DNA of 64,000 nucleotides from an uncultured Spirochaetota bacterium (lineage in GTDB: Bacteria; Spirochaetota; Spirochaetia; SZUA-6; Fen-1364): positions 64,001 through 128,000 of the forward strand of contig CAVUXE010000015.1 in the NCBI GenBank assembly GCA_963745235.1. The letters are read 5' to 3'. This document shows, piece by piece, positions 23,006 to 40,601 of this stretch (position 1 is the first letter of the stretch; every line of letters starts with the position of its first letter). Below the pieces are notes generated by a model. That model saw only the letters and a list, made by a program, of their open reading frames with translations, was not told where the DNA came from and did no database searches. A program made the position numbers and the translations under genes.

Positions 23006-23053
23006 CGGAGAAAGCTATCATGTTTGGTGGATTTTGGGGTATACCATCCAGTC

Positions 23054-24596: not shown

Positions 24597-24620
24597 GTGT
24601 CCGCCCCCGCCCCGCAACGC

Positions 24621-25730
24621 TCAGTGGATTGCGCCGCAGCGATCCTTCAGGAACCCACCTGAGCGGTGCTCCAGGACCGCCTTGATCTCAGCGACGATCG
24701 ATACCGCAATCTCCTCCGGCGTCTCAGCGCCTATGTCGAGCCCGATGGGAGCATGGAGCTTGCGGAGGTGATCCGGACCGGGCTTGAATCCCTGTTTTTC
24801 CAGCGCCTGGAGAATTGTCTGGAGCTTGCTGCGGGGACCAAGGAGACCGACATACCTGGCCGGGGAGACAAGGAGGGCGCGCAGGAGGTTCCTGTCCCTC
24901 TCGAAGTTGTGTGTCATGATAACCGCGGCATGTCCGTCGCCCAAGACGAGGTCTGTCGGGAGGTCCTCAGCCACCAGCAGCGAGTCCGCGTCCGGGAAAT
25001 TGGACCGGGATGCGGACGCGGGACGATGATCGACAACCGTCACATGCCAGCCCAGGCTCTTCGCTGCCTCCACGAGGGGAATGGCGTCCGCCCCGGCGCC
25101 GAAGATGACAAGGGGCAGGGGTGGGGAAATCAGCTCGAAGAAGACTTCAACCTCTCCCGCTGAAGAGGCGAAGGTTTTCGGGGTCGATGAAGGACCCGGT
25201 GTCCCTTTCGCGTCCGCATCGATTTCCGAAAGCAGATGAGCATCCCCGATGGTTGCGTCCACCCTCTGTCCGCCGCGCACGGCCAGGAAATCCCCCAGAC
25301 GCGCGCGGTCGGGGCTGCCGCTGCCCACAACCGTGGCCAAAGTCAGGGGGTATCGATTTTCGATGCACGCGCGCAGGAGCTCGAGCTTTTTTCCCGTTGA
25401 TTGAGCGTCGCCCGGTTCCAGGAGGACTTCGACGATCCCATTGCAGCCGAGGCCCAGCCCGAAAACGATGTCGGCTGAAGACGTGGTGTCGTACCTGACC
25501 AGCCTCGGCTTTCCGGAGGAAATAACCTCCTTCGCCCGCTCGGCAAGGTCTGCTTCGAAACACGAGGCATTGATCAAGCCGGCGATGCGGCCATTCTCGG
25601 AGAAAAGCATCCGGGCCCCTGGTCTTCGGTAGGTCGAACCATGTGCTCGCACCACTGTCGCCAGGGCGTAGTGCGTCCCATCCTGCTTCATGCGGCCGAA
25701 AGCCCTGACGATGTCCTGGGTTTCTTTCAT
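24621..25730 (-). CDS. xdhC: XdhC/CoxI Moco-insertion accessory protein
   Basis: GSTYRRPGARM, GLGCNG, FGAGADA, MTHN, APIGLDIGAETPEEIA. Confidence 0.93.
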   Translation of the reverse strand: MKETQDIVRAFGRMKQDGTHYALATVVRAHGSTYRRPGARMLFSENGRIAGLINASCFEADLAERAKEVISSGKPRLVRYDTTSSADIVFGLGLGCNGIVEVLLEPGDAQSTGKKLELLRACIENRYPLTLATVVGSGSPDRARLGDFLAVRGGQRVDATIGDAHLLSEIDADAKGTPGPSSTPKTFASSAGEVEVFFELISPPLPLVIFGAGADAIPLVEAAKSLGWHVTVVDHRPASASRSNFPDADSLLVAEDLPTDLVLGDGHAAVIMTHNFERDRNLLRALLVSPARYVGLLGPRSKLQTILQALEKQGFKPGPDHLRKLHAPIGLDIGAETPEEIAVSIVAEIKAVLEHRSGGFLKDRCGAIH

Positions 25731-25781
25731 TTCCAGAAACAAACATCGCCGCAATTCGATTCGCGGTCAATGACATAAAGA

Positions 25782-25810
25782 TTGACTTCTACATCAGATG
25801 ATCATATAAT
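25782..25810 (+). promoter_or_regulatory. ABC operon promoter with an operator candidate in the spacer
   Basis: TTGACT-17-TATAAT; TCAGAT-G-ATCATA at 25794-25806. Confidence 0.8.
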
Positions 25811-25967
25811 GCGCTGCTACTGCGGCTGAAATCATCACAATACAAAAAAAGGAGGACCGAATGAGCTAGGGGACAGTCATCGGCGCATTCTTGCAAGGAG
25901 TCTTCCGATAGTTGGATCAGCATCACGGCTGAGGGGAGTCATGCAGTCTTCAAGAGGAGGATGGGAG

Positions 25968-27053
25968 ATGAAAAGCAGGCTTTCAGTAGTAATCTGCGTA
26001 GCTCTGATCTTTGGACTTGCATTCACGTTTTCAGCGAGCGCGGGCGGTCAGAAAGAGGGAGGCGGACAGTCGACCATGATGGCGGCAAAGCCGCTGCCGG
26101 TTGTCGGCATTTCCACGGGTTCGTCGGGCACCCAGTGGCGCGACGAAATGATCGATTCCTTGAAGCAGATCGGGGATGAATACAAGGCCGCCGGAAAGAT
26201 CAAGGATTACAAGATCGTCAACAACGTCACCAACGGCGACGCAACCGAGCAGGCGAACATCATCAGGAACTTCATTTCGCAGGGTGTCAACATCATCATG
26301 CTGAACCCCAATTCGCCTGATGCGCTCAACGGCGTGATCAAGGAAGCCCAGGCCGCCGGGATCATGGTCATTTCTTTCGACGCCACGGTCACGGCGCCCA
26401 ACATGCTCAAGGTCACCCTGGACCACTATGCATGGGCATACAAGTGGGCTGACTGGATATGCAAGAGCATGCAGAGCGGCAATGTCGTCGACATCTACGG
26501 ACTTCCGGGGCACCCCGCCAACAACGACCGCCTGAAGGCAGAAGCGGACGTCGTGAAGAAGTATCCGAACATTCACGAGATCGCCTCCGCCAGCGGCTAC
26601 TGGGATGAAACCAAGGCAAAGGAGGCCGCGGCGCAGATCATTGCCTCCGGTCAGCAGATCGACGGCGTGTTCACGCAGGACGGCATGGCGTACGGCGTGC
26701 TGCAGGCGTTCCTGGATGCCGGAAAGCTGCCGAAGTACATGTATGCGGATCCGAGCACTGTATCCTTCAAGGAGTGGAAGAGCCTCCTGGATCAGGGCAA
26801 GGATATCAACTGGATCACCGAGAACAACCCCCCCGGCATTGGCGGCACCGCTTTCCGGATGGCTATCAGCCTCTATAACGGAAAGAAGTTCAAGGACAAC
26901 GTCCTGAAGGACGGCGTCTACTACTACTCCAACACGGTCGTGATCACCAAGGACAATTTCGACCAGGGCTGGGCGCTGTTGAAGGACAAGCCGGATACCT
27001 ATCTCTTGAACAACGTCATGAGCCAGGCGGACGTGGATGCTCTCTATCAGTAG
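25968..27053 (+). CDS. CUT2 (ribose-type) ABC substrate-binding protein
   Basis: Signal ending ASAGGQKE; periplasmic binding protein type 1 pattern. Confidence 0.9.
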   Translation: MKSRLSVVICVALIFGLAFTFSASAGGQKEGGGQSTMMAAKPLPVVGISTGSSGTQWRDEMIDSLKQIGDEYKAAGKIKDYKIVNNVTNGDATEQANIIRNFISQGVNIIMLNPNSPDALNGVIKEAQAAGIMVISFDATVTAPNMLKVTLDHYAWAYKWADWICKSMQSGNVVDIYGLPGHPANNDRLKAEADVVKKYPNIHEIASASGYWDETKAKEAAAQIIASGQQIDGVFTQDGMAYGVLQAFLDAGKLPKYMYADPSTVSFKEWKSLLDQGKDINWITENNPPGIGGTAFRMAISLYNGKKFKDNVLKDGVYYYSNTVVITKDNFDQGWALLKDKPDTYLLNNVMSQADVDALYQ

Positions 27054-27090
27054 AGCCTGACCCGGTTCACAAGAACATCGACCTGGATTG

Positions 27091-27116
27091 CGGGAGACGG
27101 GCCTTCCCGTCTCCCG
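27091..27116 (+). terminator. Stem-loop after the SBP gene (attenuating or stabilising)
   Basis: CGGGAGACGGG-CCTT-CCCGTCTCCCG followed by TTCCTT. Confidence 0.7.
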
Positions 27117-27136
27117 TTCCTTATGATAGGACGGTC

Positions 27137-28654
27137 ATGGTGAAAATCCTCGAGGCAAAAGGAATCAAGAAGAGATTCGGAGGCGTTGTCGCGCTTTCCA
27201 ACGGGAATCTGTCCGCCCAGACAGGGCAGATCACCGGTCTCCTGGGCGCCAACGGTTCGGGGAAAAGCACCATGTCGAAAATAATCGCCGGCGTCTACAG
27301 CGCGGACGCGGGTGAGGTGATCTACGACAGGAAGGTGGTCCACTACGCGAACCCGCACGAGGCCCGCAGCAACGGCATTGCGATGGTCTACCAGAACCTG
27401 AGCCTGGTTGCGAACCTGACCGTGTGGCAGAATATCGTCCTGGGCGCGGAGGAAAAGCGGGGGCTTCTCCTGGACGACAGGCAGTCCCGGGAGCTTTCCC
27501 GGGAAATCGTGGAGCAGCTTCTCCCCGGACTGGACATCCGACGCACCATTGACAGCCTCAGCCCGGGGGAAATGCAGATCGTGGAGATTGCGAAGGCAAT
27601 CTCGAAGCGGCCCCGGCTGCTGATCCTGGACGAGCCGACCGCCGCGCTGGAGCTTGCGCAGGTGAAGAGCCTGTTCTCACACATGCGGAATCTCGCGGCG
27701 CAGGGGATCGCAATTGTCTTCACGTCCCACCGGCTGTGGGAAGTCATGGAGATCTGCGACGACACGGTCGTTTTCAGAAACGGAGAGAACGTCGCGCAGG
27801 TGGACCTGAACCGGGACGGACGGGACCCGGAGAAGATCATCAGTCACATCACCGGTGAAACCGCCAGGACGCGCCAGAAGACAACCCTGCGCGCGGCAAA
27901 CACCGGCGCAAGCGTTCTGAAAGTCAGCAACCTGGGCTACGGCACGGTCCTGCGAAACGTCTCGTTTGACCTCAAGAAGGGTGAAATCCTGGGAATCGGG
28001 GGACTGGCCGAGCAGGGGCAGAGGGAGCTCATGCTGGCGCTCGCCGGCTACTACCCTGAAACGAGCGGCGAGGTTGAGCTGGAAGGGCGAAGGATCAGGC
28101 TGTCGCATCCGGCTGCCGCGGTCCGAAACCGAATCCTGCTTGTCCCCGGAGACAGGGAGTCCGAGGGCCTGTTCCTGCGGCACTCGATCTTTTCCAACAT
28201 CGTGTTCCCCCGACTCGGCGCGCGTGGGCACCCTCTCTTCACCCCTTTCTCGAAATACAAGGAAGAGTGCAGGAAGACAATCGACACACTCACCATCCGC
28301 ACAGCCGGGCTGGACATGCCCGTGCGCACGCTGTCGGGGGGAAACCAGCAGAAGGTGGTGGTCGGCAAATGGCTGTCCTTCGACACGAAGGTGCTCCTGC
28401 TCTCGGACCCGGCCAAGGGGGTCGACGTGGGCGCGAAGCGGGACCTCTATGACTACATCACCCGGCGGGTGCGGGAAGACGCCATGAGCGTGATCCTCTA
28501 CGCCAGCGACAACGAGGAGCTGGTCGACTTCTGTGACCGCGTGATGATCATGTACGAGGGGCAGATTGTCGCGACACTCGAAGGAGAGGCAATCAACGCT
28601 GACAGGATAATCGAGAGCTCGATGCATGTCGGGAACCGGCAGGAGGACAGGTGA
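27137..28654 (+). CDS. CUT2 ABC ATPase (two domains)
   Basis: GANGSGKST, DEPT, LSGGNQQK. Confidence 0.94.
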   Translation: MVKILEAKGIKKRFGGVVALSNGNLSAQTGQITGLLGANGSGKSTMSKIIAGVYSADAGEVIYDRKVVHYANPHEARSNGIAMVYQNLSLVANLTVWQNIVLGAEEKRGLLLDDRQSRELSREIVEQLLPGLDIRRTIDSLSPGEMQIVEIAKAISKRPRLLILDEPTAALELAQVKSLFSHMRNLAAQGIAIVFTSHRLWEVMEICDDTVVFRNGENVAQVDLNRDGRDPEKIISHITGETARTRQKTTLRAANTGASVLKVSNLGYGTVLRNVSFDLKKGEILGIGGLAEQGQRELMLALAGYYPETSGEVELEGRRIRLSHPAAAVRNRILLVPGDRESEGLFLRHSIFSNIVFPRLGARGHPLFTPFSKYKEECRKTIDTLTIRTAGLDMPVRTLSGGNQQKVVVGKWLSFDTKVLLLSDPAKGVDVGAKRDLYDYITRRVREDAMSVILYASDNEELVDFCDRVMIMYEGQIVATLEGEAINADRIIESSMHVGNRQEDR

Positions 28655-29685
28655 AACCAACGAACACCCGCAGGCTTGCCTCTCTGGTTTCCATGGTCGT
28701 CAGGCCGGAGTACTCCAGCCTGCTGATCCTGGTGGTGATGGTTGCCATTGCGGCCGCGCTCCAGAGGAACTTCTTTCAAGGCCCCTCCCTGCTCCTGACA
28801 ATCGACGCCTTCGGCCCGCTCATCCTGCTGACCATGGGCCAGGCCGTCGTGATGGTTACCGGGCTCTTCGACCTTTCCTCCGGCGCCGCCCTCTCCCTCT
28901 ACACATGCATCCTCACGTACGTGATGAGGACTGATCAGCCGGCAACCGGCATTGCAGCCATCCTCATAACGTTTGTCGCCGCGGTTGCCGTGGGAATCAT
29001 CAACGGTTTCGGCGCCGGCTACCTGCGCGTCTCCCCGGTCGTCGTGACGTTTGCGACATCTTTCCTCTGGCTGGGCATCGGCCTGTTTCTCCGACCCACG
29101 CCGGGCGGACAGAGTGTCAACTGGTTCAACGCCTTCTACGACCTGCGCAATGTGGACGGCATGCCGTCGTTCCTGAAGTCCGTGAGCTCCGTGGTGCCGC
29201 CGGTGCTCATCCTGATACTCCTGGGCTGCCTGTTCTGGTACTTCCTCAGCAAGGCCCGCACGGGCCGGTATCTCTACGCGGTGGGCGGGAACGAGGAGAG
29301 CGCGTATCGAAGCGGGATAAACACGGCCCGCGTCCAGATCATCGCCTACGTCATCAACTCGGTCTTCATCTTCCTGGCCGCCCTCTTCTTCGTCGGTCAG
29401 AATCAATCAGGGGACGCGCGCTTCGGGGACCCGTTCACGCTGCGAACCATAGCCTCTGCCGTTGTCGGCGGGATAGCCCTGACGGGCGGCCGGGGCAGCA
29501 TTTTCTTCGCGATCGTCGGTGCCCTCATCATCAATCTCGTCAACAAGATCATCTTCTTCGCCAACATCCCCTACGCCTACGGGACCCTGGTGGCCGGGGT
29601 CATCGTCATCGTCGCCATCGGCGGCGCGCAGCTGTACTCCGCCTATGGGAAGCGGGCTGCCTCGAAGGGACGGGTACAACGGTGA
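28651..29685 (+). CDS. CUT2 ABC permease
   Basis: DLSSG, GRYLYAVGGNEESA, GG..L.GGRG. Confidence 0.92.
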   Translation: MKPTNTRRLASLVSMVVRPEYSSLLILVVMVAIAAALQRNFFQGPSLLLTIDAFGPLILLTMGQAVVMVTGLFDLSSGAALSLYTCILTYVMRTDQPATGIAAILITFVAAVAVGIINGFGAGYLRVSPVVVTFATSFLWLGIGLFLRPTPGGQSVNWFNAFYDLRNVDGMPSFLKSVSSVVPPVLILILLGCLFWYFLSKARTGRYLYAVGGNEESAYRSGINTARVQIIAYVINSVFIFLAALFFVGQNQSGDARFGDPFTLRTIASAVVGGIALTGGRGSIFFAIVGALIINLVNKIIFFANIPYAYGTLVAGVIVIVAIGGAQLYSAYGKRAASKGRVQR

Positions 29686-30665
29686 GCCTCGCGATGGTGC
29701 GCCGCGGAGGGCCGCTCTCCAAGTCCTATGATCGGAACAAGAAGCTCATCGCCGCGTTTCTGGCCATTGTCTTTCTCTTCGTGGTTGGCCATTTCATCGT
29801 GCCCAACTTCCTGAGCCTCAATCAGATCCTGATCACCGTGAAGCTCGCTTCCTTCATCGCCCTGTTCAGCCTCTGCCAGATGATCGTCATGGCGGCGGGG
29901 GGAGCAGGCCTGGACCTCTCTGTCGGCTACACGGCAACCATAACCGCCATCTTCACCGCGAGCATCATGAACGGGCGCAACGAGAACCTCTGGCTCGCCA
30001 TCCTCGTCGCGCTGGGCTTCGGGCTCGCGGTCGGTTTTTCCAACGGTTTCCTTTCCGCCTATCTCAAGCTCCCCTCCCTCGTCGTGACGCTGGCCATGTC
30101 CCAGATCCTCCAGGGCATCATCAACGTCTATACGGCCGGGGCGCTCATCACGGGAAAGCCGTCCCCCGTGCTGCAGATCGTGGCGGCCAAGTCCACCGGC
30201 ACGTTTCCGAACATCATCTTCCTGCTCATCCTCGTGACCGCGGTCGTCATGGTCCTGCTCTACCGCACGAAGTGGGGCGCCACCCTGTTCGGCGTCGGGG
30301 AAAACGAGACCGCGGCATACTTGAGCGGCGTCAATACCCGGCGCGTGCGCACGATCGCATTCATCATGAGCGGCACCCTCGCGAGCCTGATCGGGCTGCT
30401 GCTCCTGGGCAACATGGGGGTGGCCTTCAAGGACATGGGGTCTGACTACGTGCTGCCGAGCATCGCCGCCGCGGTTGTGGGCGGCGTGTCGCTTTCCGGC
30501 GGGGATGGGAACTACATCGGGGTGATTCTCGGGGCCATCCTTCTCCAGGCGCTTCTCAACCTTCTGGTTGCCCTCGGGTGGGGCGATGCCGGGAAATGGG
30601 TGGGTTTCGGGATCGTCCTGTATGCGCTTCTCGCCGCATACGTCAGCAACCGGCGCGGGAGATAG
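29682..30665 (+). CDS. CUT2 ABC permease
   Basis: LDLSVG, GENETAA, VGGVSLSGG. Confidence 0.92.
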   Translation: MSLAMVRRGGPLSKSYDRNKKLIAAFLAIVFLFVVGHFIVPNFLSLNQILITVKLASFIALFSLCQMIVMAAGGAGLDLSVGYTATITAIFTASIMNGRNENLWLAILVALGFGLAVGFSNGFLSAYLKLPSLVVTLAMSQILQGIINVYTAGALITGKPSPVLQIVAAKSTGTFPNIIFLLILVTAVVMVLLYRTKWGATLFGVGENETAAYLSGVNTRRVRTIAFIMSGTLASLIGLLLLGNMGVAFKDMGSDYVLPSIAAAVVGGVSLSGGDGNYIGVILGAILLQALLNLLVALGWGDAGKWVGFGIVLYALLAAYVSNRRGR

Positions 30666-30669
30666 AGGG

Positions 30670-32916
30670 CTACTCTGACCGGTCCCTTTCCTGGATTGCC
30701 CGCCAGACCCTCTCCGGTGTCAACGGCAGGTCTCGAATGGGAGCTCCAATTGCCTCTCGAACCGCGGACCCTACCGCGGCTGCCGTTGCAAGCAGCCCGC
30801 CCTCCCCTGTCCCCTTGGCCCCGTAGGGCCCCGGCCCGTCCTCGTTCTCCACGGTCAGGGATACCTGCGAAGCGGGAATGTCCTTGATGGTGGGGATACG
30901 GTAGTCGAGGGCGCCCAGGTTCACGATGCGGCCGGCGCCGTCAAGGATGATGTGCTCCATCAGCGTGTGTCCCAATCCCATGATGGCCGCCCCGCTGTCC
31001 TGCATCTCCACGTGCTGGGGATTGAGCGCCTTTCCGACGTCCCCAACGGTCACGTAGCTGGGGATCCAGATCATCCCTGTTTCCTCGTCCACCGAGACTT
31101 CAGCCGCGCTGCACGACAGCTCGTAAAAGACGGTCTTGCCGGCAAGGGGATGACCGGCAGTCTTTCGCTTCACAAAGGAACCCACGCCGATGATCTCTCC
31201 GCGGGTGGTGCCGTAATAGTCACGAAGGAGCTCGGCAAAGCCCGCCTCTCCCCGTGGCCAGCGCGCTCTCCCGCCGGCGACATTGATTTCACTCTCCGGC
31301 GCCCCGGAGAGCTCCGCCGCCAGGGATCGCATCTGGTCCTTCACCTCCTGGCAGGCCTTCAGCACCGCCGACCCCATGATCACCGTGGAGCGGCTGGCGG
31401 AGGTGGAGGTGTCATAGGGGACGACCGCCGTGTCTCCCATCACCACCGCCACCTGCTCGATGGAGAGCCCCATCTCCTGGGCGACAATCTGCGCGAAGAC
31501 CGTCCGCGCCCCCTGCCCCATGTCGGAGGTGCCCGTCAGGAGAGAGGCGCTTCCGTCGTAGTGGAGGCGGAGGATGCAATAGGAGGCCGCGTAGGTTGCG
31601 GAGATTTTCAGGCCCAGCGCGATACCCCGGCCGTGCCCCTTCGCGAGCGGCGTGCCCCAACCGATGGCGGATGCCGCTTTCTCCAGCGCTTCGCGCCAGT
31701 TGCCGTCGCACGGGATGTCTCCCCGGATGAACTCCTCCCCCTTTTCGGGGAGATTGCGCAGGCGAATGGCAACCCGGTCCACGCCGAGCTTCCACGCCGC
31801 CTCATCAATCTGCGATTCTATGGCCCACGACATCTGGGGAACGCCGAAGCCGCGGAAGGCCGTTGTCGGGGTGGTATGAGACAAGAGGGCGCGCGAGTGG
31901 ATCCGCACGTTCGGCACGCGATACGGACCGCATGCGGTATAGCTTGCTTTTTCGACGACGCGAAGGCCGATGTCCGCGTAGGCCCCGATGAGGCAGTCCG
32001 CCGTCACGTCGTGAAATACCAGGCTGCCGTCCGTGCCGAACCCCGAGCGGACATGCACGCGGGTGGCCATGCGCCGTCCCGCCTGAAACGTCTCCTCCAG
32101 TGTCAGCGCGAGCCGAACGGGCCGTCCTGTCCTCAGGGCCATGAACGCCAGGAGCGGCTCGAACTTCGGGTATCCCTTGCCGCCGAAGGCCCCCCCTGGA
32201 TCGGGGGCGATGATCCTGACCTTTGCGAGAGGCAGGCGAAGCACGTCGGCGATGGTCTTTTGCAGGATAAAAGGGTGCTGGATGGGGCTCCAGACCTTCA
32301 CTCCGCCATCCTCCGGCATGGCGATGAAGGCGTGCGGCTCGATGGCGAAATGGGTGACCATGGGGAACGTGTAGACGTTCTGGATCACGAGGTCCGCGCT
32401 GAGCGCATCCACGTCGCCCCAGCCGAAGCGCAGATCTTCCAGTACGTTCGTGTCCTTGAGGGCGTCCTTCGGCCGCAAGACCGGATCCTGCACCAGGGGC
32501 GCGCCGGGGTCCAGCGCTTCATCGACCGTATAGACGCCAGGCAGCTTTTCATGCGCAACGCGAACCAGCGCGGCAGCCTCCCTTGCCGCATCCTCCGTCT
32601 CCGCCGCCACCGCGGCCACGGGCTCCCCGAAGAACTTCGTTTCACCGACCGCGATGACGGGTCGGTCCTGCAGGTTCGGCCCGAAACGCGGGACCGGCTG
32701 CGGGAGGTCCCGGGCGGTCATGACGCAGCGAACCCCGGGGAGCTTCTCCGCCCCAGTCGCGTCGATGCCGGTAATGCGCGCGTGCCCGCAGTCCAGGGTG
32801 ACCAGCTTCACCCACAGCATGCCGTCCAGCCGTATGTCACCGACGTATTTCTGAGCCCCCGTGACTCGCTCCGCGCCCCCGACACGCTTGACCGACTGTC
32901 CGATCCACTCAGTCAT
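30670..32916 (-). CDS. Xanthine-dehydrogenase-family molybdopterin-binding subunit
   Basis: GGAFGGK, AFRGFG.PQ, DMGQG, GAKGTGE. Confidence 0.94.
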   Translation of the reverse strand: MTEWIGQSVKRVGGAERVTGAQKYVGDIRLDGMLWVKLVTLDCGHARITGIDATGAEKLPGVRCVMTARDLPQPVPRFGPNLQDRPVIAVGETKFFGEPVAAVAAETEDAAREAAALVRVAHEKLPGVYTVDEALDPGAPLVQDPVLRPKDALKDTNVLEDLRFGWGDVDALSADLVIQNVYTFPMVTHFAIEPHAFIAMPEDGGVKVWSPIQHPFILQKTIADVLRLPLAKVRIIAPDPGGAFGGKGYPKFEPLLAFMALRTGRPVRLALTLEETFQAGRRMATRVHVRSGFGTDGSLVFHDVTADCLIGAYADIGLRVVEKASYTACGPYRVPNVRIHSRALLSHTTPTTAFRGFGVPQMSWAIESQIDEAAWKLGVDRVAIRLRNLPEKGEEFIRGDIPCDGNWREALEKAASAIGWGTPLAKGHGRGIALGLKISATYAASYCILRLHYDGSASLLTGTSDMGQGARTVFAQIVAQEMGLSIEQVAVVMGDTAVVPYDTSTSASRSTVIMGSAVLKACQEVKDQMRSLAAELSGAPESEINVAGGRARWPRGEAGFAELLRDYYGTTRGEIIGVGSFVKRKTAGHPLAGKTVFYELSCSAAEVSVDEETGMIWIPSYVTVGDVGKALNPQHVEMQDSGAAIMGLGHTLMEHIILDGAGRIVNLGALDYRIPTIKDIPASQVSLTVENEDGPGPYGAKGTGEGGLLATAAAVGSAVREAIGAPIRDLPLTPERVWRAIQERDRSE

Positions 32917-33394
32917 TGTCCGCCCCCTGCCGGGAGGCGGCGCGCACAGCCTCTATGATCCTGCCATAGCCCGCGCAGCGGCAGAGGTTTCCGGCCAACT
33001 CCTCCTTGATCTCCTCCACTGAGGGGCTGGGGTTGTGACTCAGGAGGTACTGGGCGGACATCACCATCCCCGGTATGCAGAAGCCGCACTGCACGGCTCC
33101 CTCGGCAAGAAACGCCTCCTGGAGGGAGCTCAACCGGCTGTCTTTTGCAAGTCCTTCGACAGTGATGATGCTGCATCCGTCCGCTTCGGCAGCCAGCATG
33201 AGGCAGGAGTTCACCGCGCGGCCATCGACGAGCACCGTGCACGCTCCACACTCACCCAGCGAGCAGCACTCCTTCGTACCGGTCAGGCCGAGCTGGTCCC
33301 GCAGGACCTTGAGCAGGGTGTGGCTCGACAGAACCTCGAGAGAATGCGCAATGCCGTTCACCGTCAGCGAAATGGCGACAGAGCTCGAGTCCAT
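32909..33394 (-). CDS. 2x[2Fe-2S] small subunit (CoxS/XdhS-like)
   Basis: CSLGECGAC, QCGFC.PG, NLCRC. Confidence 0.94.
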   Translation of the reverse strand: MDSSSVAISLTVNGIAHSLEVLSSHTLLKVLRDQLGLTGTKECCSLGECGACTVLVDGRAVNSCLMLAAEADGCSIITVEGLAKDSRLSSLQEAFLAEGAVQCGFCIPGMVMSAQYLLSHNPSPSVEEIKEELAGNLCRCAGYGRIIEAVRAASRQGADND

Positions 33395-33416
33395 TCCATC
33401 CGTCTCCTTCAAATGA

Positions 33417-34310
33417 TCAGTCTCCCTGCCCGCCGTTTGCCAGCCGGCGGTGGGCTTTCTCCAGCGCTCTCCTGCTCATGACCAGGAGCATGGCGGCCCG
33501 ATACTCGCGGCTCGCCCTCACATCTGAAATCGGGCTCGTGACGGCAATCAGCTTCATGAGGAGGCGCTCGCGCTCGGGGTCACCAATGGCGGGGTCGGCG
33601 AGCCTCCCGCTGTCATCCACCGTGATGATTGGACGCGGTCCGACCGCTCCGAAAGCGAACTTTGTCCGCCGCGCCTCGTCCACGAGGCAGCAGAGGTTGA
33701 TGGTCGCAAGATCCACTCCCCGCCTCCGCGTCAGCCTCTCGAAAGCCGTTCCCGCGCGCTGCCGCGGGAGGGGCAGCCGAATGGATGTCACGATCTCATC
33801 CGGGAGACGGACCGTCTTTCCCGGTCCCATGAAGAAATCAGCGAGCGCGACGCTCCTCTGCCCGGCTTTGCCGACAAGATTCACGGTGGCGTCATGAACC
33901 AGCAGCGCGGGCAGGGTGTCCGCCGCGGGAGAGGCATTGCAGATGTTTCCCGGAAGCGTGGCGCGGTTTCGAATCTGGATGGAACCGACGGTAGAAGCCG
34001 CCTCCGCGAGGGCCGGAAAGCTGCGAAGCACGCGCGGATCCCTGATGATGTCCGAGAGCAGCGCGAGGGCGCCGATTTCCAGGAACGGCCCGGCTTCCAC
34101 GATGTCTGCGCGAAGGGAGCTGATCTTCTTCAGGTCGATGACCACCCGCGGGGAAATCTTCCTGGCCCGGATCTGGACCAGGAGGTCTGTCCCCCCCGAG
34201 AGCAGGCAGGCGTCCGGGCCGAGGTCCGCAAGCAGGCTCACCGCTTCCTCGATCCGCTGCGGACGGACAAGGCGGAACCCGTCTCTCTCACCCGTGGATT
34301 GTCCCGTCAT
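33417..34310 (-). CDS. FAD-binding medium subunit (CoxM-like)
   Basis: SGGTDL, QIRNRATL.GN..NASPAAD, ISDVRAS.EYR; no 4Fe-4S insert. Confidence 0.93.
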   Translation of the reverse strand: MTGQSTGERDGFRLVRPQRIEEAVSLLADLGPDACLLSGGTDLLVQIRARKISPRVVIDLKKISSLRADIVEAGPFLEIGALALLSDIIRDPRVLRSFPALAEAASTVGSIQIRNRATLPGNICNASPAADTLPALLVHDATVNLVGKAGQRSVALADFFMGPGKTVRLPDEIVTSIRLPLPRQRAGTAFERLTRRRGVDLATINLCCLVDEARRTKFAFGAVGPRPIITVDDSGRLADPAIGDPERERLLMKLIAVTSPISDVRASREYRAAMLLVMSRRALEKAHRRLANGGQGD

Positions 34311-35053
34311 ATCCGGCCCAGCGATTCTCCGGCCTCCCGGAGGAGGCGCAGGATCCTCTGGAAATGCTCGTCATGCCGTGTTACCGCGCGGGAGAAATCC
34401 AGCGAGGTGATCGCGTCGATCATCTCCTGATGGTCAACCGCGATCTCCGCCGTGTCGCTGATTGCGCGGTAGGTCCTTCGGATCTCTTCCTTCATGAAAC
34501 CGTGAAGGGTGGCGAAAATCTCCACGAACAGGGAGTTGCCGGTGGCTTCGACGATGGTTGCATGAAAATCGTAGTCTGCCTGCACGAGCGCCTCGATGGA
34601 TTTCCCAGAAGCGCCTTCCCTCATGTGCGACAGGACCTCCTGCAGGCGCCGGAGCACGGCACGGCCATTCTCCGTTTTGCGCTGCAGCTCACGGACCAGG
34701 GCGCTGACCCCGGCGCTTTCGATGATCCTTCGCAGCTCAATGACCTCCCTGAGGTTGTTCTGGCCCAGAAGGAGGGACCACGTGATCGCTTCCTGCGAAA
34801 TCTTTGTCCGGTCACAGAGGAAGGTCCCTTTCGGCACCCTGGCTTCCAGGACGCCGAGGTGCTGAAATATCTTGACCGCCTCCCGCACCGAGGAGCGACC
34901 GACGCCGAACATCTCCGCCAGCTCGCTCTCCGTCGGAATACGATCGTTGACTTTGTACGCGCCGGACAGTATCAGCTCCCGGATGCGGTCCATGACCTGG
35001 ACCACGACCGTTTTCTGCTGGATCTTCTGCTGAAACCGCTCTCCAATCATCAC
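34307..35053 (-). CDS. FadR/GntR transcriptional regulator
   Basis: IPTESEL..MFGVGRSSVREA, D..FH..I..ATGN; first gene of the Mo-enzyme operon. Confidence 0.93.
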   Translation of the reverse strand: MMIGERFQQKIQQKTVVVQVMDRIRELILSGAYKVNDRIPTESELAEMFGVGRSSVREAVKIFQHLGVLEARVPKGTFLCDRTKISQEAITWSLLLGQNNLREVIELRRIIESAGVSALVRELQRKTENGRAVLRRLQEVLSHMREGASGKSIEALVQADYDFHATIVEATGNSLFVEIFATLHGFMKEEIRRTYRAISDTAEIAVDHQEMIDAITSLDFSRAVTRHDEHFQRILRLLREAGESLGRI

Positions 35054-35088
35054 TTTTTCGCCTCCTTCCGACCGGAATGAGAAAAATC

Positions 35089-35118
35089 TTGACGAATAGT
35101 CAGATTATCTGATATAAG
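35089..35118 (+). promoter_or_regulatory. Promoter with a perfect operator palindrome
   Basis: TTGACG-18-TATAAG; TCAGAT-T-ATCTGA at 35100-35112. Confidence 0.75.
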
Positions 35119-35188
35119 GGTGCAAGAAGCAAGCGGCACTGGCCGGTGCTCCTCCAAGGACGTCAAGCTGCACTGACAGGGGTTCGTG

Positions 35189-36166
35189 ATGTCTCATTAC
35201 GTCAAGCTGCTGGAGCAAATGACACGGGACGACTTCCAGGATACCGGGGGGAAGGCCGCAAACCTCGGTGAGCTGGTCCGTGGAGGGTTCAACGTTCCTC
35301 CCGCCTTCTGCGTCACCGCCGGGTCCCTTGATCGCGTCATCGAGAAAAACGGCATATCCGGACGCATCGACGAGATTGCATCCGCCATCAACTACGAGGA
35401 CTATGACCAGGTCGAGAAGCAGACCGCGCAGATCAGGGACCTGATCTCCGCATGCCTGATCCCTGAGGACCTCCTGGCGGAGATCCGCCAGGGGATCCAG
35501 TCCCTGCGGAAAGATGCCGCCCACGAACCTTTCGTCGCGGTCCGCTCCTCGGTTGCCGTCCGTGACAGCACCATCTCTTCTTTCCCCGGCATGATGGACA
35601 CCTACCATTTCCTGCGCGGCGAGGCGCAGATCATCGAGTACATCAGGAAATGCTGGGCCTCGCTGTGGACGGCCCGGGCCGCCTACCGGCGCCACCAGCA
35701 GAAGATCGAGCATCGAAAAGGGATAATTGCGCCGATCGTCCAGCGCATGGTGAACGCGGACGTTGCAGGGGTGCTGTTTACGGCCAATCCCATCACCGGG
35801 TCGCGGGGAGAGATCGTGATCGAAGCGAACTGGGGGCTGGGAGAATCACTGGTCTCAGGAGAGTCGATGAACGACTCCTACGTGGTCCGCAAGGGCGCTC
35901 CTCCCGCCATTGCGGAAAAGAGGATCCAGAAGAAGACGATCATGGTGACAATTGACAGGGAAGCGGGCGTGGGCAGGAAGAAGTATGATGTCCCGGCCGA
36001 GCTCAGTGAAAAGGAGACGCTCACGGACAATCAGCTTGTTGAGCTTGCCACGCGCGCAATGGAGATCGAGGGGCTGTTCGGATACCCGCAGGACATCGAG
36101 TGGGCCTACGAGAAGAGTGAGCTTTTCCTGCTCCAGAGCAGAAAGGTGAAGGGACTGAAAGACTGA
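35189..36166 (+). CDS. Stand-alone PEP-synthase N-terminal ATP-binding domain (PpsB-like)
   Basis: GGKAANLGEL, VAVRSS, SFPG, GLGESLVSG, QDIEWA, LLQSR, then stop. Confidence 0.9.
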   Translation: MSHYVKLLEQMTRDDFQDTGGKAANLGELVRGGFNVPPAFCVTAGSLDRVIEKNGISGRIDEIASAINYEDYDQVEKQTAQIRDLISACLIPEDLLAEIRQGIQSLRKDAAHEPFVAVRSSVAVRDSTISSFPGMMDTYHFLRGEAQIIEYIRKCWASLWTARAAYRRHQQKIEHRKGIIAPIVQRMVNADVAGVLFTANPITGSRGEIVIEANWGLGESLVSGESMNDSYVVRKGAPPAIAEKRIQKKTIMVTIDREAGVGRKKYDVPAELSEKETLTDNQLVELATRAMEIEGLFGYPQDIEWAYEKSELFLLQSRKVKGLKD

Positions 36167-36185
36167 GCGGCGACAAGGAGCTGCA

Positions 36186-37073
36186 ATGAAGACCTTTTCC
36201 GAGGAGTTTTGCTGCGCGGACGCGGTCCTCCGCGTCGATGTGATCGGAGATGAGGCCCCCAGCCACGTCCTTGATGACATGACATTCATGAACTACCGGC
36301 TGGCCGCGGTGGACCTTCGGACCGAGGTCAGGAAGCCCAGACCGGACGTGATCTGGGACACGGGGAAGAAAGACAAGACAATCGCGTACAAGGACCAGCA
36401 GCTCGTTCTGCAGGGGGACTGGTCGCAAGGTGAGCTCAACAGGATCATCGTGAGCCTGCTCACCCTCCAGATGGAGAAGGCGGGCCTGCATCCCTTCCAC
36501 TCCTCCGCGGTCCGGTACAAGGACAGGACAATTCTCTTCCTCGGCGGGGAGTCGAACCATGGCAAGAGCATGAGCCAGATCGAGGGATGCCGCCGCGGAG
36601 GCCTTGTCGTGTCTACCGAAACGACGGTAACCGATGAGAAGGGATGGGCCGTGATGGGATCCAAGAGCGTCTACCTGCGGCAGCGCGCAAAGGGCACGGA
36701 ACGCGCGGACATCCCGAGCCAGGACGAAGGGGTCTCCAAGTTCTTTTCCAGGGACCCGGACTACATCCCCTATGACAAGCCGTCGAACATCGACCTGGTG
36801 GTCATGCCGGGGATCGACGGCCACTTCGACCTCAAGATCGTGGAGATGATGGGGTTCGAGCGGGAGTACCAGACCTTCCATTCCCTGATGAACTACTTCG
36901 GCCTGCACACGCTGCTGAGCCAGGAGGGCATTGTCATGCCGGTCATCGACACGGACGCCCTGCGAAAGGCGCGCGGGGCGTTCTGCAGCCGCTTCGCCAA
37001 AGGAAGACCGTATTTCATGGTTCGAGCCAGGACGCCGCAGATCCTCTTTGATGCGGTGGAGGAGCACATGTGA
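36186..37073 (+). CDS. Hypothetical protein with an HprK/PEPCK-like P-loop
   Basis: FHSSAV...ILFLGGESNHGKS. Confidence 0.6.
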   Translation: MKTFSEEFCCADAVLRVDVIGDEAPSHVLDDMTFMNYRLAAVDLRTEVRKPRPDVIWDTGKKDKTIAYKDQQLVLQGDWSQGELNRIIVSLLTLQMEKAGLHPFHSSAVRYKDRTILFLGGESNHGKSMSQIEGCRRGGLVVSTETTVTDEKGWAVMGSKSVYLRQRAKGTERADIPSQDEGVSKFFSRDPDYIPYDKPSNIDLVVMPGIDGHFDLKIVEMMGFEREYQTFHSLMNYFGLHTLLSQEGIVMPVIDTDALRKARGAFCSRFAKGRPYFMVRARTPQILFDAVEEHM

Positions 37074-37948
37074 TGGAGCAGGTGACAAAAAACGTCTTCG
37101 CGGAGACAAAGGTCCGGGGCTGCAATCCAGGGTACGTCATCACTTCTGACGGCGTCGTTGTCATCGACACGCCGCAGCTCCCCACTCGGGCGGTCGCAAT
37201 GTGCAAGGAAGTCGAGGCGCGGGGGCGCATCCGCTACCTGATCAACACCGAGCACCATGTCGACCACATCTTCGGCAACTACTTCTTCAAGAGCGCGGAA
37301 AAGGTGATCGCGCACCGGGAGACCGTGAAGAACTTCATGGTGGTCACGCCTCAGATCAACCCCTACGAGTACGCCAGGGAAGCCATTCCAACGGACGACC
37401 CGCAGGGCGCCGCTCTCTTTCCTGACGCCAGGACGTATTTCGCCGCTCCCAACAAGCCGACCATCGTGATCGCAGGGGACACGGTCCTGACCGTCGGGGA
37501 TCACACCTTTGAGCTCCTGCACACTCCGGGACACACTCCCGGACAGCTTGCGGTCGTGCTCCCGCAGGAGCGCGTCATGTTCGTCGGCGATACCATCTTC
37601 AATCACTGCCAGACGTGGCTCTACACCTCGAATGTCGAGCAGTGGATCAGGGCCCTCGACAGGCTCCTGGAGGTGGATGTTGACCTGATCGTTCCCGGCC
37701 ATGGCCCGGTGTGCACAAAGCAGGAGATCTACGTGCAGCGGGCCTTCCTGCTGGAGTGGGTGACGGCCGTGGCAGTCGCCGTGGGCAAAGGATGGAGCAA
37801 AGAGGAGTGCATTGAGCGGATCAGCTTCATGGATCGATTCCCCGTGGATATCGGCCAGGAATACATGGGCCCCGAGGTCACGAAGCAGAACATCATCGCG
37901 CTGTACAATCAGCTGACGGCAAAGATGCCGGTCATGAAGAAGGGTTGA
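37073..37948 (+). CDS. MBL-fold metallo-hydrolase
   Basis: NTEHHVDHIFGN, TPGHT, GD, PGHG. Confidence 0.9.
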   Translation: MEQVTKNVFAETKVRGCNPGYVITSDGVVVIDTPQLPTRAVAMCKEVEARGRIRYLINTEHHVDHIFGNYFFKSAEKVIAHRETVKNFMVVTPQINPYEYAREAIPTDDPQGAALFPDARTYFAAPNKPTIVIAGDTVLTVGDHTFELLHTPGHTPGQLAVVLPQERVMFVGDTIFNHCQTWLYTSNVEQWIRALDRLLEVDVDLIVPGHGPVCTKQEIYVQRAFLLEWVTAVAVAVGKGWSKEECIERISFMDRFPVDIGQEYMGPEVTKQNIIALYNQLTAKMPVMKKG

Positions 37949-37950
37949 CC

Positions 37951-38739
37951 ATGGACCAGTCATTGGAGAAGTACGCGAAGCTTTTCGATCTTGCGGGCCG
38001 CACGGCGCTCGTCGCGGGAGGCGCGGGCGGAATCGGAAGCGCCATCAGCGAAGGCCTTGCCTCACGCGGGTGCAAGGTAGTCCTCACCAGCCGCACGGCG
38101 GCCAAGGCGGAGAAGGTGGCATCAGCCATTCGCGCCGCGGGCGGAGACGCGCACGGCCGCGCGCTGGTGGTGGACAGGATGGAGGCGCTTCGCCAGCTCG
38201 TGGATGGCGTCCTGAGGGACGTCGGCAGGATCGACATCCTCGTGAACTGCATCGGAAGCCACATCGAGGCGCCGGCGGAAGAATACCGCGAGGAGGACTG
38301 GGACGCCATTTTCACGGGGAGCCTGAAGAGCGCGTTCTTCCTGTCCCAGGCTGTCGCGAAGGGCCAGATCGGCAAAGGCGGAGGGAAGCATATTCACCTC
38401 ACCTCGGTCCGCAGCCTGCTGGGAATCCACAGGGGATATGCCAGCTACTGCGCGAGCAGGGGCGGGATGAACATGATGATCAAGCAGCTGGCCACCGAGT
38501 GGGCGAAGCACGGGATCACCGTGAACGGGATTGCTCCCACGTTCACGAGGACCGACCTTGTGGCCAAGTACCTGAACGATCCGGGCTTCTACAACCCCCT
38601 GGTGGCCCGCATTCCGCTGGGACGGGTTGCGGATCCCGTTGACATTGCGGCGCTTGCCATGTACCTGGCGGCTCCAGCCTCGAACTTCATCACGGGGCAG
38701 ATCATCTTCGCGGACGGCGGAGTTACCTGCTGCCAGTGA
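37951..38739 (+). CDS. SDR oxidoreductase (gluconate 5-dehydrogenase-like, YxxxR variant)
   Basis: GGAGGIG, YCASR, VNGIAP, DGG. Confidence 0.9.
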   Translation: MDQSLEKYAKLFDLAGRTALVAGGAGGIGSAISEGLASRGCKVVLTSRTAAKAEKVASAIRAAGGDAHGRALVVDRMEALRQLVDGVLRDVGRIDILVNCIGSHIEAPAEEYREEDWDAIFTGSLKSAFFLSQAVAKGQIGKGGGKHIHLTSVRSLLGIHRGYASYCASRGGMNMMIKQLATEWAKHGITVNGIAPTFTRTDLVAKYLNDPGFYNPLVARIPLGRVADPVDIAALAMYLAAPASNFITGQIIFADGGVTCCQ

Positions 38740-38842
38740 CCGGCGCGCGGGCAGCCCGCGGTCTGTTGGCGATCATCCGCACGGGAAAGCCCGGGCCCGT
38801 TGCTTGTGACCGCGGGTCTCCCGTGACTTCTCCTTCTCCCGT

Positions 38843-40525
38843 CTAAAGGATCTCAACCACCCCGCGGCTGCCGTCAACGCGGAGGGAATCCCCTGTCTTG
38901 ATCTCCTTGGTTGCGCTTGCCGTTCCGACGACCGCCGGAAGCATGAACTCCCGCGCCACCACGGCGGAGTGTGAGAGTGCGCCGCCGGCATCTGTAACCA
39001 GGCCTGCAATCTTGCTGAAGACGACGACCCACGCGGGATTGGTCATCACGCAGACCATGATCTCACCGCGCTGCACGTCGTTGAACTCCGTCGGACTGTG
39101 GACGACGCGCGCCACGCCCTCCACCACCCCGGCGGAGGCCGGCACGCCGCGCACCTCTCCCTTGACCTTCTTGAACTTCTGCTGCCGCTCGAACTTTTCC
39201 GGGTACCCCCACAACGTGTGGTAGGGTTCCTCGTACATGTTCTGCTGCGTGACCGTGCCCACCCAGTCCCGGGGGGTGATGTGCCGCGCCCTTTCCATGC
39301 TTGCCCGCGCCTCGGCAATCAGCTTCCGCCCGTCATACCCCTTCGGATTGCCGACGTACTTGCGAAGCTGCTCGTACTCGAGGAGCATGATATCCTCCGG
39401 GGCGTCCAGGAGCTTTTCCCTGACCATTTTCCGAGCCACTGTCAGCAGGACGAGCCTCATGCGGGCAAAGGTCGCCTGGTCGAAGTAGAAGTGGTGGTCC
39501 GCGGTGAGGGGGAGCATGCTGAGATTGAGCCGCAAGGCTTCTTCGAATCTCTTTTTGTCCGCCTCCGAGGCAGAGGCAAGCTTCTTGCGAAGATACAGGA
39601 TTGCGCCTTCCTGCTCCTCGATGCACTTCCCGTACACGCTGTCATAATCGAAGTTGGAATCGTAGTAGCCCTTGATCTCTCCGATGATCGGAGTCGGGTC
39701 TTCCACGGAGAGCTTTCCCGTGTATTCGTGCGTATACATGGTCTTGTACCCGAACTCCCGCGCGTACATCTCCACCTCCGCAAGGAAAGCCTTGCCGGGC
39801 GCGGATGCCTGGAGCACCGAGAGGATCTGTGAAGCGTCGGCCTTCTTGCCGAATATCGATGAGATCTCCCTGCTCGCCTTCGCCTCCTCCTTCAAGTGCC
39901 ACAGGGCCTTCAAGCTGTCCCAGTTGCGATCCGCCCGGGAGACGTTGACCTTCCCCAGGGTCTCGGAATCCACATCTCCCAGCAGGTCCTTGACCACTGA
40001 ACCGAAGTTGAGGGAGGCCTGGAACTGCGCGAGGTTGAGAATCCAGTGCAGGCGGAAGTGCCGCTCCTGGATGTCGATTGCCTCCTCGAGGTAGATCATG
40101 AGCTCCTGGAGGGTCGCCGCGTCCGCGTTGAACGTGTCGATGTACTCGAAGTTGCGCTTCACCTCCGGGAGATAGCGCTCCTGCCACCAGGACATGCAGT
40201 TGCTGGCGTACGTGGACATGATCCACAGGTAGTACGGGGCCACCTCCGCGGCGTCCTTCGAGTCCCGGGGGACGATTGCCGTATAGACGTAGCCATTTAC
40301 CCGCTTCGCTATCCAGGCGATTCCCGAATTGAGATTGAAGCGACGGAACATGTACTCGCAGGTCGGTCCCCACCAGCCATGGAGGCTGAAGTACATGGGA
40401 GAGATCGGGTTGGGGCAGTGGTTGTCATCAAAAAACCAGAAGAGCTCCTTCTCCCCGTCATTTTTCCATTCCACCGGGAAGTCCTTGTCACCCAGGAATT
40501 GTGCAAGCACCTTGGTTGAGGCCAT
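38843..40525 (-). CDS. PEP-utilising phosphohistidine swivel protein (PpsA/Rph C-part-like)
   Basis: Large helical acceptor region plus C-terminal TNPAW...GGALSHSAVVARE; GGAGG SD. Confidence 0.88.
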   Translation of the reverse strand: MASTKVLAQFLGDKDFPVEWKNDGEKELFWFFDDNHCPNPISPMYFSLHGWWGPTCEYMFRRFNLNSGIAWIAKRVNGYVYTAIVPRDSKDAAEVAPYYLWIMSTYASNCMSWWQERYLPEVKRNFEYIDTFNADAATLQELMIYLEEAIDIQERHFRLHWILNLAQFQASLNFGSVVKDLLGDVDSETLGKVNVSRADRNWDSLKALWHLKEEAKASREISSIFGKKADASQILSVLQASAPGKAFLAEVEMYAREFGYKTMYTHEYTGKLSVEDPTPIIGEIKGYYDSNFDYDSVYGKCIEEQEGAILYLRKKLASASEADKKRFEEALRLNLSMLPLTADHHFYFDQATFARMRLVLLTVARKMVREKLLDAPEDIMLLEYEQLRKYVGNPKGYDGRKLIAEARASMERARHITPRDWVGTVTQQNMYEEPYHTLWGYPEKFERQQKFKKVKGEVRGVPASAGVVEGVARVVHSPTEFNDVQRGEIMVCVMTNPAWVVVFSKIAGLVTDAGGALSHSAVVAREFMLPAVVGTASATKEIKTGDSLRVDGSRGVVEIL

Positions 40526-40555
40526 TCCTCCCTCCTTCTTCGCCACGGATTATTG

Positions 40556-40601
40556 TCTGATGATCACACACCATTCTGGTCCCCCGCTGAACGTCTGTCA
40601 A
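40556..40601 (-). promoter_or_regulatory. Promoter with a third operator copy at the predicted TSS
   Basis: TTGACA(40601-40596)-17-CAGAAT; TCTGAT-G-ATCACA at 40556-40568. Confidence 0.6.

Follow-up and report, generated by a model that had tools for sequence, protein, structure and literature searches.

Within a 64,000-nucleotide stretch of DNA from an uncultured Spirochaetota bacterium (contig CAVUXE010000015.1; hereafter the window), positions 24621..40601 hold a cluster of 14 genes, each an intact open reading frame (ORF) in the ORF listing of the window, that is real and co-regulated, its conservation extending over several phyla and reaching archaea. The cluster encodes a molybdenum (Mo) enzyme of the xanthine dehydrogenase (XDH) family, a dikinase split into two proteins, and a 295-residue P-loop protein resembling phosphoenolpyruvate (PEP) carboxykinase (PEPCK), here called mini-PEPCK, and it probably degrades a small ring compound, with phosphate added first and oxidation by the Mo enzyme following. 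As a whole, the model that we favor from the gene content, with a little better than even confidence, is a scavenging pathway under FadR repression whose substrate is a small polar ring compound with an enolic or phenolic hydroxyl group. Its central pairing is not new, because a Mo hydroxylase that depends on a split dikinase is already known from the 3hpd cluster described below; what is added to that precedent is a PEPCK-fold family, a repeated swap between Mo and tungsten (W) enzymes, an operator, and a sugar-linked context.

A shared operator and a recurrent core

Gene identities were assigned by Pfam and NCBIfam profile matches. Rather than one operon, the cluster comprises five transcription units that leave three promoter regions: xdhC leftward and the importer genes rightward from 25755-25940; the genes for the FadR regulator and the M, S, and L subunits of the Mo enzyme leftward, and those for the ATP-grasp dikinase half, mini-PEPCK, a metallo-beta-lactamase (MBL)-fold hydrolase, and a short-chain dehydrogenase/reductase (SDR) rightward, from 35054-35185; and the gene for the phospho-His dikinase half leftward from 40547-40601. 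The initial annotation had proposed that the cluster shares an operator, and the palindrome TCWGATNATCWGA, allowing at most one mismatch, indeed occurs at exactly three sites in the window (25794, 35100, and 40556), all in these promoter regions. Shuffled sequence held a mean of 0.49 such sites and reached three in 1 of 100 shuffles, and the 18 sites found genome-wide give a Poisson probability of 1e-5 for three within 16 kb, both figures being optimistic because the pattern was fitted on the same sites. At two mismatches, the palindrome is not in excess (7 sites versus a mean of 5.5 by chance).

The first site (25794-25806) lies in the spacer of a sigma-70-like promoter, TTGACT-17-TATAAT (25782..25810, plus strand), found by pattern and by promoter scan, and the same operator sequence stands upstream of the orthologous importer in the genome G366. 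The second, a perfect copy (TCAGATTATCTGA, 35100-35112), accompanies a promoter-like site, TTGACG-18-TATAAG (35089..35118, plus strand), that was recognized by eye and not called by the promoter scan; a 31-base stretch around it is identical in another locus, L001. The third (40556-40568), also kept in L001, follows a promoter, TTGACA-17-CAGAAT (40556..40601, minus strand), detected by both pattern and scan. G366 retains all three sites together with a FadR ortholog at 70%, and we regard this conservation as independent support for the operator and as a stronger test than the counts. The corresponding locus of a same-genus neighbor (G325) has a different GntR regulator and none of the three sites. 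The window regulator (34307..35053, minus strand), a FadR-subfamily GntR protein with GntR and FCD domains, is a putative repressor of the regulon, acting via this operator.

To survey the system beyond the window, the mini-PEPCK alignment was scanned over one genome per species in GTDB. This gave 463 related stretches, and 80 loci were returned, spanning Spirochaetota, Bacillota, Chloroflexota, Acidobacteriota, Actinomycetota, and one Planctomycetota. Counts of the core families use the 47 loci of at least 17 kb, which are related to one another and not independent draws, and opposite-strand shadow ORF families were removed from all counts. The genes do co-occur in other genomes, and the core recurs across phyla: a Mo/W (pterin) oxidoreductase is present in 45/47 loci, an NAD dehydrogenase (SDR or a 3-hydroxyacyl-CoA dehydrogenase-like protein, 3HCDH) in 40, the phospho-His half in 38, a hydrolase (MBL or cyclase) in 37, the ATP half in 34, and a phosphoesterase in 22. 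Together with the operator, this recurrence supports the co-regulated catabolic system first suggested for the region. Three pairs of families are never found together, namely, MBL and cyclase (43 and 8 loci), SDR and 3HCDH (40 and 16 loci), and the HD and PHP phosphoesterases (14 and 15 loci), each with an overlap of 0. These appear to be functional swaps, the cyclase-family hydrolase standing in for MBL in other lineages, and the phosphoesterases would fit a logic of phosphorylation, oxidation, and dephosphorylation. In the window, the MBL-fold hydrolase (37070..37948, plus strand; Lactamase_B) has an ExHxDH motif, with Glu for the first His, that is found in 43 of 44 homologs, and the SDR (37945..38739, plus strand), gluconate 5-dehydrogenase-like with a score below the cut-off, carries YxxxR instead of YxxxK. 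The system is patchy, occurring in 2/301 genomes of a phylum sample and in 3/61 relatives (the window genome is counted in both), and the cultured Oscillibacter valericigenes An860 carries the core. A weak hint of expression comes from a peat metatranscriptome, a single study without a silent-region control, in which five short contigs match the binding-protein, P-loop, and phospho-His genes at 99% or more.

The split dikinase and the mini-PEPCK

Domain architecture and motifs confirm that the two dikinase halves are real. The ATP-grasp half (35186..36166, plus strand) is a stand-alone PPDK_N domain covering residues 21-323 of 326 (1.8e-85), with additional matches to PEP synthase and RPH. The other half (38843..40546, minus strand) consists of an RPH-like substrate domain and, C-terminal to it, a swivel domain with phospho-His526; the RPH match spans residues 243-567 and PRK08296 models residues 29-567, the sole Pfam match is PEP-utilizers at 492-562, and there is no PEP-synthase barrel. 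Its phospho-His motif, TDAGGALSH, has Leu at position -2 and so no regulatory Thr, and H526 is invariant in 48 aligned rows. The two-component dikinases HpeHI, CreHI, and PpsAB likewise consist of a separate ATP-grasp protein and an RPH-like substrate/swivel protein, are defined by a T/SxxGGxxxH swivel motif without the regulatory Thr, and are about 45% alike mutually for HpeH, CreH, and PpsA (PMC12167813). The window pair has the same two-protein architecture and swivel motif. It differs from these systems in that its locus lacks a carboxylase, a P450, and a CoA ligase, and in that the window protein falls into a clade of its own, the sequence comparison having been made via a haloarchaeal stand-in (25%). 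This clade joins the window phospho-His protein and 83 neighbors, which are 32-75% identical to it, while homologs from a haloarchaeal aromatic-degradation cluster and from a nonribosomal peptide synthetase (NRPS)-linked setting in Bacillus are about 25% identical. Because polar residues of the substrate domain are conserved in the clade (H43, H167, N171, Q174, D206, N208, H351, H352, D356, and Q357), a common acceptor class is suggested.

Split dikinases also occur on two plasmids. One from Haladaptatus (L169:2302-11834) places a split dikinase with a Rieske oxygenase, a Zn-dehydrogenase, an aldehyde dehydrogenase, and a metallophosphoesterase, an archaeal Cre-like cluster, and one from Bacillus cereus (L170:1-11711) carries it inside an NRPS cluster that also encodes a thioesterase and a phosphopantetheinyl transferase.

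The mini-PEPCK (36186..37073, plus strand) exceeds no family cut-off in Pfam or NCBIfam (PF01293 scores 15.1 bits versus a cut-off of 26.5), and a protein search counted 2845 of 3824 candidates as its homologs. A structure model built from 82 sequences (pLDDT 92.6), which replaces a model from 25 close sequences (pLDDT 64, Z about 6), matches PEPCK 1ii2 with a Z of 10.9 and a root mean square deviation (rmsd) of 4.9, 250 residues being aligned over residues 1-295 in a two-lobed fold. The C-terminal domain of the model matches HprK (Z 9.9, rmsd 3.3, 121 aligned), and the next structural matches are far lower (a third PEPCK at Z 6.1, then Z 4.4). The model thus depicts a full PEPCK-like fold compressed into 295 residues. 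Across 135 mini-PEPCK sequences, H105, G121, N124, G126, K127, E145, E172, R173, D175, D211, Q229, and R263 are invariant, as is a GxxxNxGK motif, and position 86 holds either Lys or Arg throughout. The fold, the metal His, the P-loop, and the basic residue at the G-E-x-x-K position are common to the ATP-dependent PEPCK/HPr kinase superfamily; in contrast to ATP-dependent PEPCK (about 520 amino acids), the protein has only 295, with GGESNHGKS and STET replacing the usual motifs. A nucleotide-dependent phosphotransferase is its probable identity, judging from the fold and the conserved sites, and its direction and substrate are putative. Matches in the ESM Atlas were restricted to unnamed or automatically named PEPCK-family clusters, and a plasmid search with mini-PEPCK gave no match. 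A complex prediction for the phospho-His half with mini-PEPCK scored 0.00, a result used as evidence neither way. In Faecalicatena fissicatena (L044:7902-17339), the gene lies with those for an SMP-30 lactonase, a Zn-dehydrogenase, an XDH-type enzyme, and a Tm-1-like protein.

The Mo/W oxidoreductase and a proposed pathway

The Mo enzyme is encoded by three genes recognized by profile matches on the minus strand: the Mo subunit L (30670..32916), which retains the catalytic Glu motif KGTGEGG; the 2x[2Fe-2S] subunit S (32909..33412); and the flavin adenine dinucleotide (FAD) subunit M (33417..34310), which has four scattered Cys residues and no Fe-S cluster motif. The best solved relative of the Mo subunit is the alpha subunit of 4-hydroxybenzoyl-CoA reductase (4-HBCR; 1rm6). 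An identity as 4-HBCR was rejected, all subunits scoring under the curated cut-offs (alpha, 446 versus 995; beta, 108 versus 405; gamma, 173 versus 258), and several unrelated XDH clades share the same top match.

Among the related loci, the Mo subunits split into two deeply separated groups, and in Anaerolineae loci such as L015, two genes of the aldehyde ferredoxin oxidoreductase (AOR) family and a ferredoxin-like gene take the place of the Mo enzyme. Distant metagenome loci extend this pattern: of 80, the 26 shorter than 4.5 kb were omitted, and the 54 of at least 4.5 kb, several of which nearly duplicate each other or genome loci, contain AOR in 37 cases and XDH-type subunits in 7. The protein ACS90682 of Thermococcus sibiricus has an identical counterpart on one of the metagenome contigs with the tungsten version (L089). 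The AOR-linked dikinases are not monophyletic (approximately unbiased test, p 4.5e-5, 31 rows), and at least three changes are needed among 77 labeled rows, so that within a single dikinase clade, tungsten AOR-family enzymes have substituted for the Mo enzyme on three or more occasions. The reaction common to the XDH and AOR families is aldehyde oxidation using water, AOR-family enzymes being mostly aldehyde oxidizers. Because these enzymes repeatedly replace the Mo enzyme, oxidation of an aldehyde-level carbon is favored over ring hydroxylation, which had been the role assigned to the Mo enzyme in the initial annotation and is not the most parsimonious one. We would give aldehyde-type oxidation slightly more than an even share of the probability, ring hydroxylation a sizable minority of it, and reduction a small remainder.

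The annotation had also placed hydroxylation before phosphorylation. By analogy with the Cre, Hpe, and Pps pathways, phosphorylation probably comes first: there it is the initial step, ahead of oxidation, for a reason that the HpeHI study calls unclear (PMC12167813). In the pathway that we propose, the CUT2 importer would bring the compound in, and the dikinase halves, working as an RPH/HpeHI-type enzyme, would convert ATP to AMP and Pi via phospho-His526 and place a phosphate onto the ring hydroxyl. The mechanism is the published one of the family and the acceptor is our suggestion; the phosphate might both trap the compound and mask an electron-rich, metal-chelating enolate. The Mo enzyme would then oxidize the phosphorylated compound at an aldehyde-level carbon with oxygen from water, the target being a free CHO, a hemiacetal or hemiaminal, or a ring CH beside a heteroatom, and the product an acid, lactone, or lactam. 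Ring opening by the MBL hydrolase would follow. The fold and conserved sites of mini-PEPCK suggest that it could next exchange phosphate between a nucleotide and the ring-opened enol-phosphate, with recovery of ATP as the likeliest outcome. Finally, the SDR, with a Zn-dehydrogenase, lactonase, transaldolase, and methylmalonate semialdehyde dehydrogenase (MMSDH) encoded elsewhere in the genome, may lead to a 5-keto-acid that would be cleaved to central metabolites.

Clues to the substrate come from the importer and its partners. The importer consists of a CUT2-type solute-binding protein (25941..27053; Peripla_BP_4 2e-46, under every named NCBIfam cut-off), an ABC ATPase (27137..28654), and two permeases (28651..29685 and 29682..30665), all on the plus strand and the latter three assigned by profile match; xdhC (24621..25754, minus strand; XdhC_CoxI and XdhC_C) encodes a Mo-cofactor maturation factor. 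Both had been counted as integral parts of the system, a view that the related loci contradict: at a threshold of 35% identity, 1/80 has the binding protein within 10 kb and 0/80 has xdhC, and binding-protein orthologs occur in 14/61 relatives versus 3/61 for the core. The importer and xdhC thus look like local additions outside the conserved core. The importer is linked with the core in the window genome (G000), G325, and G366, where a 77% binding-protein ortholog lies 16 kb from the P-loop gene. Importer orthologs in eight relatives are accompanied by an old yellow enzyme (OYE)-type flavoenzyme (8/8), a Gfo dehydrogenase (7/8), a TIM isomerase (7/8), and a DeoC-like aldolase (4/8); the Gfo dehydrogenase best matches levoglucosan dehydrogenase at 199 bits versus a cut-off of 650. 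A locus conserved in relatives (L185-L191, e.g., L185:6630-17926) combines the same CUT2 importer with a 706-amino-acid OYE flavoenzyme, a GntR regulator, a TIM isomerase, and a Gfo dehydrogenase, as well as a DeoC-like aldolase, SDRs, and an M24 protein, which together look like an unassigned pathway for anhydro- or deoxy-sugars. In levoglucosan catabolism of Bacillus smithii, such a Gfo dehydrogenase and TIM pair makes the enolone 2-hydroxy-3-keto-glucal, and the elimination pathway for levoglucosan and 3-keto-glycosides, as far as its accessible description goes, needs no kinase (PMC7676230). The likeness is that a Gfo and TIM-barrel isomerase pair stands beside the importer orthologs and, in G325 and G366, beside the core; unlike the published pair (PMC7676230), the one here scores under the family cut-off, is not part of the window locus, and is missing from almost every other core locus.

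G366 unites the core, the importer, the Gfo/TIM pair, a lactonase, a Zn-dehydrogenase, a transaldolase, and MMSDH in a single cluster, and other contigs of the window genome encode orthologs of the Zn-dehydrogenase (67%), lactonase (55%), and transaldolase (72%). On one of them (L082:4659-9824, contig C1), Zn-dehydrogenase, 6-phosphogluconolactonase-like, and 3HCDH-like genes lie between two ABC importers, the first two being orthologous to G366 cluster genes. Another (L083:5765-17818, contig C37) holds an inositol cluster with an iolG-like pair, iolD, iolE, an iolB-like gene, MMSDH, and two transaldolase genes; no IolC or IolJ was found near it, and no IolC scored above cut-off in the window genome. 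Because this inositol cluster lacks a kinase and the genome an IolC above cut-off, cleavage of a 5-keto-acid by transaldolase is suggested: the L083 transaldolase probably cleaves 2-deoxy-5-keto-gluconate and may act directly on the unphosphorylated form. A literature search covering few subscription papers returned no account of a transaldolase replacing IolC/IolJ. A sugar-derived enolone or a hydroxypyridine is weakly suggested by the partners of the importer and by the enzymes acting further down the pathway. A hexose-derived hydroxy-pyranone/enolone, or its nitrogen analog, a hydroxypyridine, is for us the likeliest substrate class in this lineage, held with somewhat less than even confidence, and any one compound is improbable. 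Ascorbate, kojic acid, maltol, mimosine-derived pyridones, and 5-hydroxypicolinate are candidates from chemistry, and no result here selects among them.

Several observations weigh against the proposed pathway. All of its reaction steps are deduced from genes, and the preference of the AOR family for aldehydes, on which the choice of oxidation type leans, is a generalization from family chemistry. The window locus contains no dedicated phosphatase gene. Mini-PEPCK does not appear to be obligately coupled to the dikinase: among 8 genomes without the phospho-His half at the mini-PEPCK locus, 3 have that half elsewhere and 5 (drafts or metagenome-assembled genomes, the draft of F. fissicatena among them) had none that we could find. 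Conversely, a plasmid of Thermomicrobium roseum DSM 5159 carries a member of the dikinase clade, an XDH-type enzyme of another clade, a cyclase, and an HD-like protein, yet no mini-PEPCK gene was found on it. The sugar-type clues are lineage-limited, with a transketolase or transaldolase in 21/47 loci and none in 26/47, the Gfo/TIM pair in 1/134 loci scanned within 10 kb, and the importer found without the core in most relatives; archaeal and deep-branching loci feature genes for an HMGL-like enzyme (21 loci), LDH-like proteins, and 2-oxoacid dehydrogenases instead.

Alternative readings and known pathways

The 3hpd cluster of Ensifer adhaerens HP1 combines an XDH-family Mo hydroxylase, a split dikinase (orf9/orf10), an ABC importer, and a GntR regulator; orf9 and orf10 are genetically essential for the Mo-dependent conversion, the role of the dikinase being unexplained in the accessible text, which also names no PEPCK-like protein, MBL, or SDR (bioRxiv 10.1101/2020.01.08.898148). 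The window cluster shares the XDH-family L/M/S subunits, split dikinase, ABC importer, and GntR regulator, and adds those three proteins, but it lacks the SRPBCC/CoxG subunit and the maleamate genes hpdBCDE, none of which occurs in the window locus; CoxG (PF06240) was found neither there nor in the window genome (85.7% complete; controls detected). By gene content, the system resembles 3hpd in outline, as a candidate member at most; the plasmid matches included no Ensifer record. This precedent itself raises the possibility of an oxygen-independent counterpart, in which a 3-hydroxypyridine-type N-heteroaromatic, vitamin B6 derivatives included, is O-phosphorylated, hydroxylated on the ring by the Mo enzyme, and opened as a lactam. 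Cyclase-family and MBL hydrolases could open an amide, the FHMPC dehydrogenase model of the B6 pathway gives the 3HCDH of related loci 167-205 bits (cut-off 500), and the MBL matches 4-pyridoxolactonase weakly (33 bits versus 325). All these B6-pathway matches are far under cut-off, though, and with the CoxG and maleamate genes missing and the repeated AOR-family replacement hard to square, given the chemistry of the family, with ring hydroxylation, we consider such a counterpart rather unlikely. An assignment to the vitamin B6 pathway itself was rejected, all matches being below cut-offs.

Alternatively, mini-PEPCK may be no pathway enzyme at all, instead regulating the pterin enzyme or the swivel domain or acting as a maturation ATPase for either. 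Its presence follows that of the Mo/W enzyme (45/47) more closely than that of the dikinase (38/47), and its C-terminal domain matches HprK. That it accompanies two unrelated oxidoreductase folds, XDH and AOR, is not what would be expected of a protein partner, however, and its many invariant Arg and acidic residues suggest a small-anion site, which leaves this role improbable. A carboxylation module, in which the dikinase makes an enol- or aryl-phosphate that mini-PEPCK carboxylates, using CO2 and transferring the phosphate to ADP, thereby replacing UbiD, is slightly more doubtful still. It would draw on the full-length PEPCK-like fold with its N-terminal lobe, on a segment with G-E-x-x-K/R, the His, and the P-loop that aligns with ATP-PEPCK 1j3b (E 0.003), on 2-oxoacid-handling genes in deep-branching loci, and on a window genome (85.7% complete) in which UbiD was not found by profile search (controls detected in 9/14); but the structural match begins at PEPCK residue 86, part of the PEPCK N-terminal region is missing, the superfamily includes plain kinases (HprK, Z 9.9), and mini-PEPCK occurs without the phospho-His half in 5/8 genomes checked. 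A reductive route, in which phosphate makes the hydroxyl a leaving group that the Mo enzyme removes reductively in a 4-HBCR-like manner to give a 2-deoxy acid and then malonate semialdehyde, is very unlikely: the Mo subunit does find its best Protein Data Bank and NCBIfam match in 4-HBCR alpha, and an inositol-type transaldolase accompanies MMSDH in 8/12 MMSDH loci, but the score is below half of the cut-off with the same top match from unrelated XDH clades, the FAD subunit lacks the Cys cluster for the extra Fe-S center that marks 4-HBCR, and the window locus has no ferredoxin gene.

The initial annotation was right to set the cluster apart from the canonical phenol route. There is no UbiD, PpsC, or CoA ligase among the cluster ORFs, and the anaerobic phenol route (PpsABC and Ppc) was ruled out, as no UbiD-type phenylphosphate carboxylase was found in the locus or the genome (85.7% complete; controls detected in 9/14). 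Its claim that no characterized pathway has this gene set holds in part: the combination of Mo hydroxylase, split dikinase, ABC importer, and GntR regulator is published for 3hpd, and the same literature search, which did not cover the 3hpd supplements, returned no account of the full set or of the mini-PEPCK family.

Uronate genes flank the cluster, with uxaE to the left and uxaC, uxuB/uxuA-like genes, and a GntR gene to the right (window 22517-24685 and 40668-44811). They are not counted in it because uxaE, uxaC, and uxuB/A have no operator and do not recur among the neighbor families of related loci. The end of uxaE and the uxuB-uxuA junction look frameshifted, like other window genes, perhaps through assembly errors. 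Elsewhere in the window, a 303-amino-acid ORF without a Pfam match (21676-22587) adjoins a GNAT acetyltransferase; by eye, an ATP-grasp ligase-like gene lies next to an apparently frameshifted KamA-type radical S-adenosylmethionine gene (14331-16651), and phosphomannomutase-like and mannose-6-phosphate isomerase-like regions form an in-frame fusion (51596-54496).

It is tempting to speculate that the dikinase and mini-PEPCK are a "PEP synthase plus PEPCK" pair transplanted onto a non-pyruvate substrate, that the enol-phosphate enables Mo/W ring oxidation with mini-PEPCK regaining ATP and possibly fixing CO2, and that the tungsten AOR-family enzyme performs the same step as the XDH-family enzyme; all of this holding together strikes us as a long shot. 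If true, sugar-derived heterocycles would be handled by an undescribed cross-domain pathway that is independent of oxygen. The 3hpd genetics raised the question of why a split dikinase is required by a Mo hydroxylase, and the clade described here bears on it as a testable system with a defined operator and repressor, a binding protein, and cultured carriers. Solving the pathway would assign a new PEPCK-fold family, with its 463 matching stretches in the GTDB scan, and a function for orphan tungsten oxidoreductases, and would perhaps show how anaerobes use the products of sugar decomposition.

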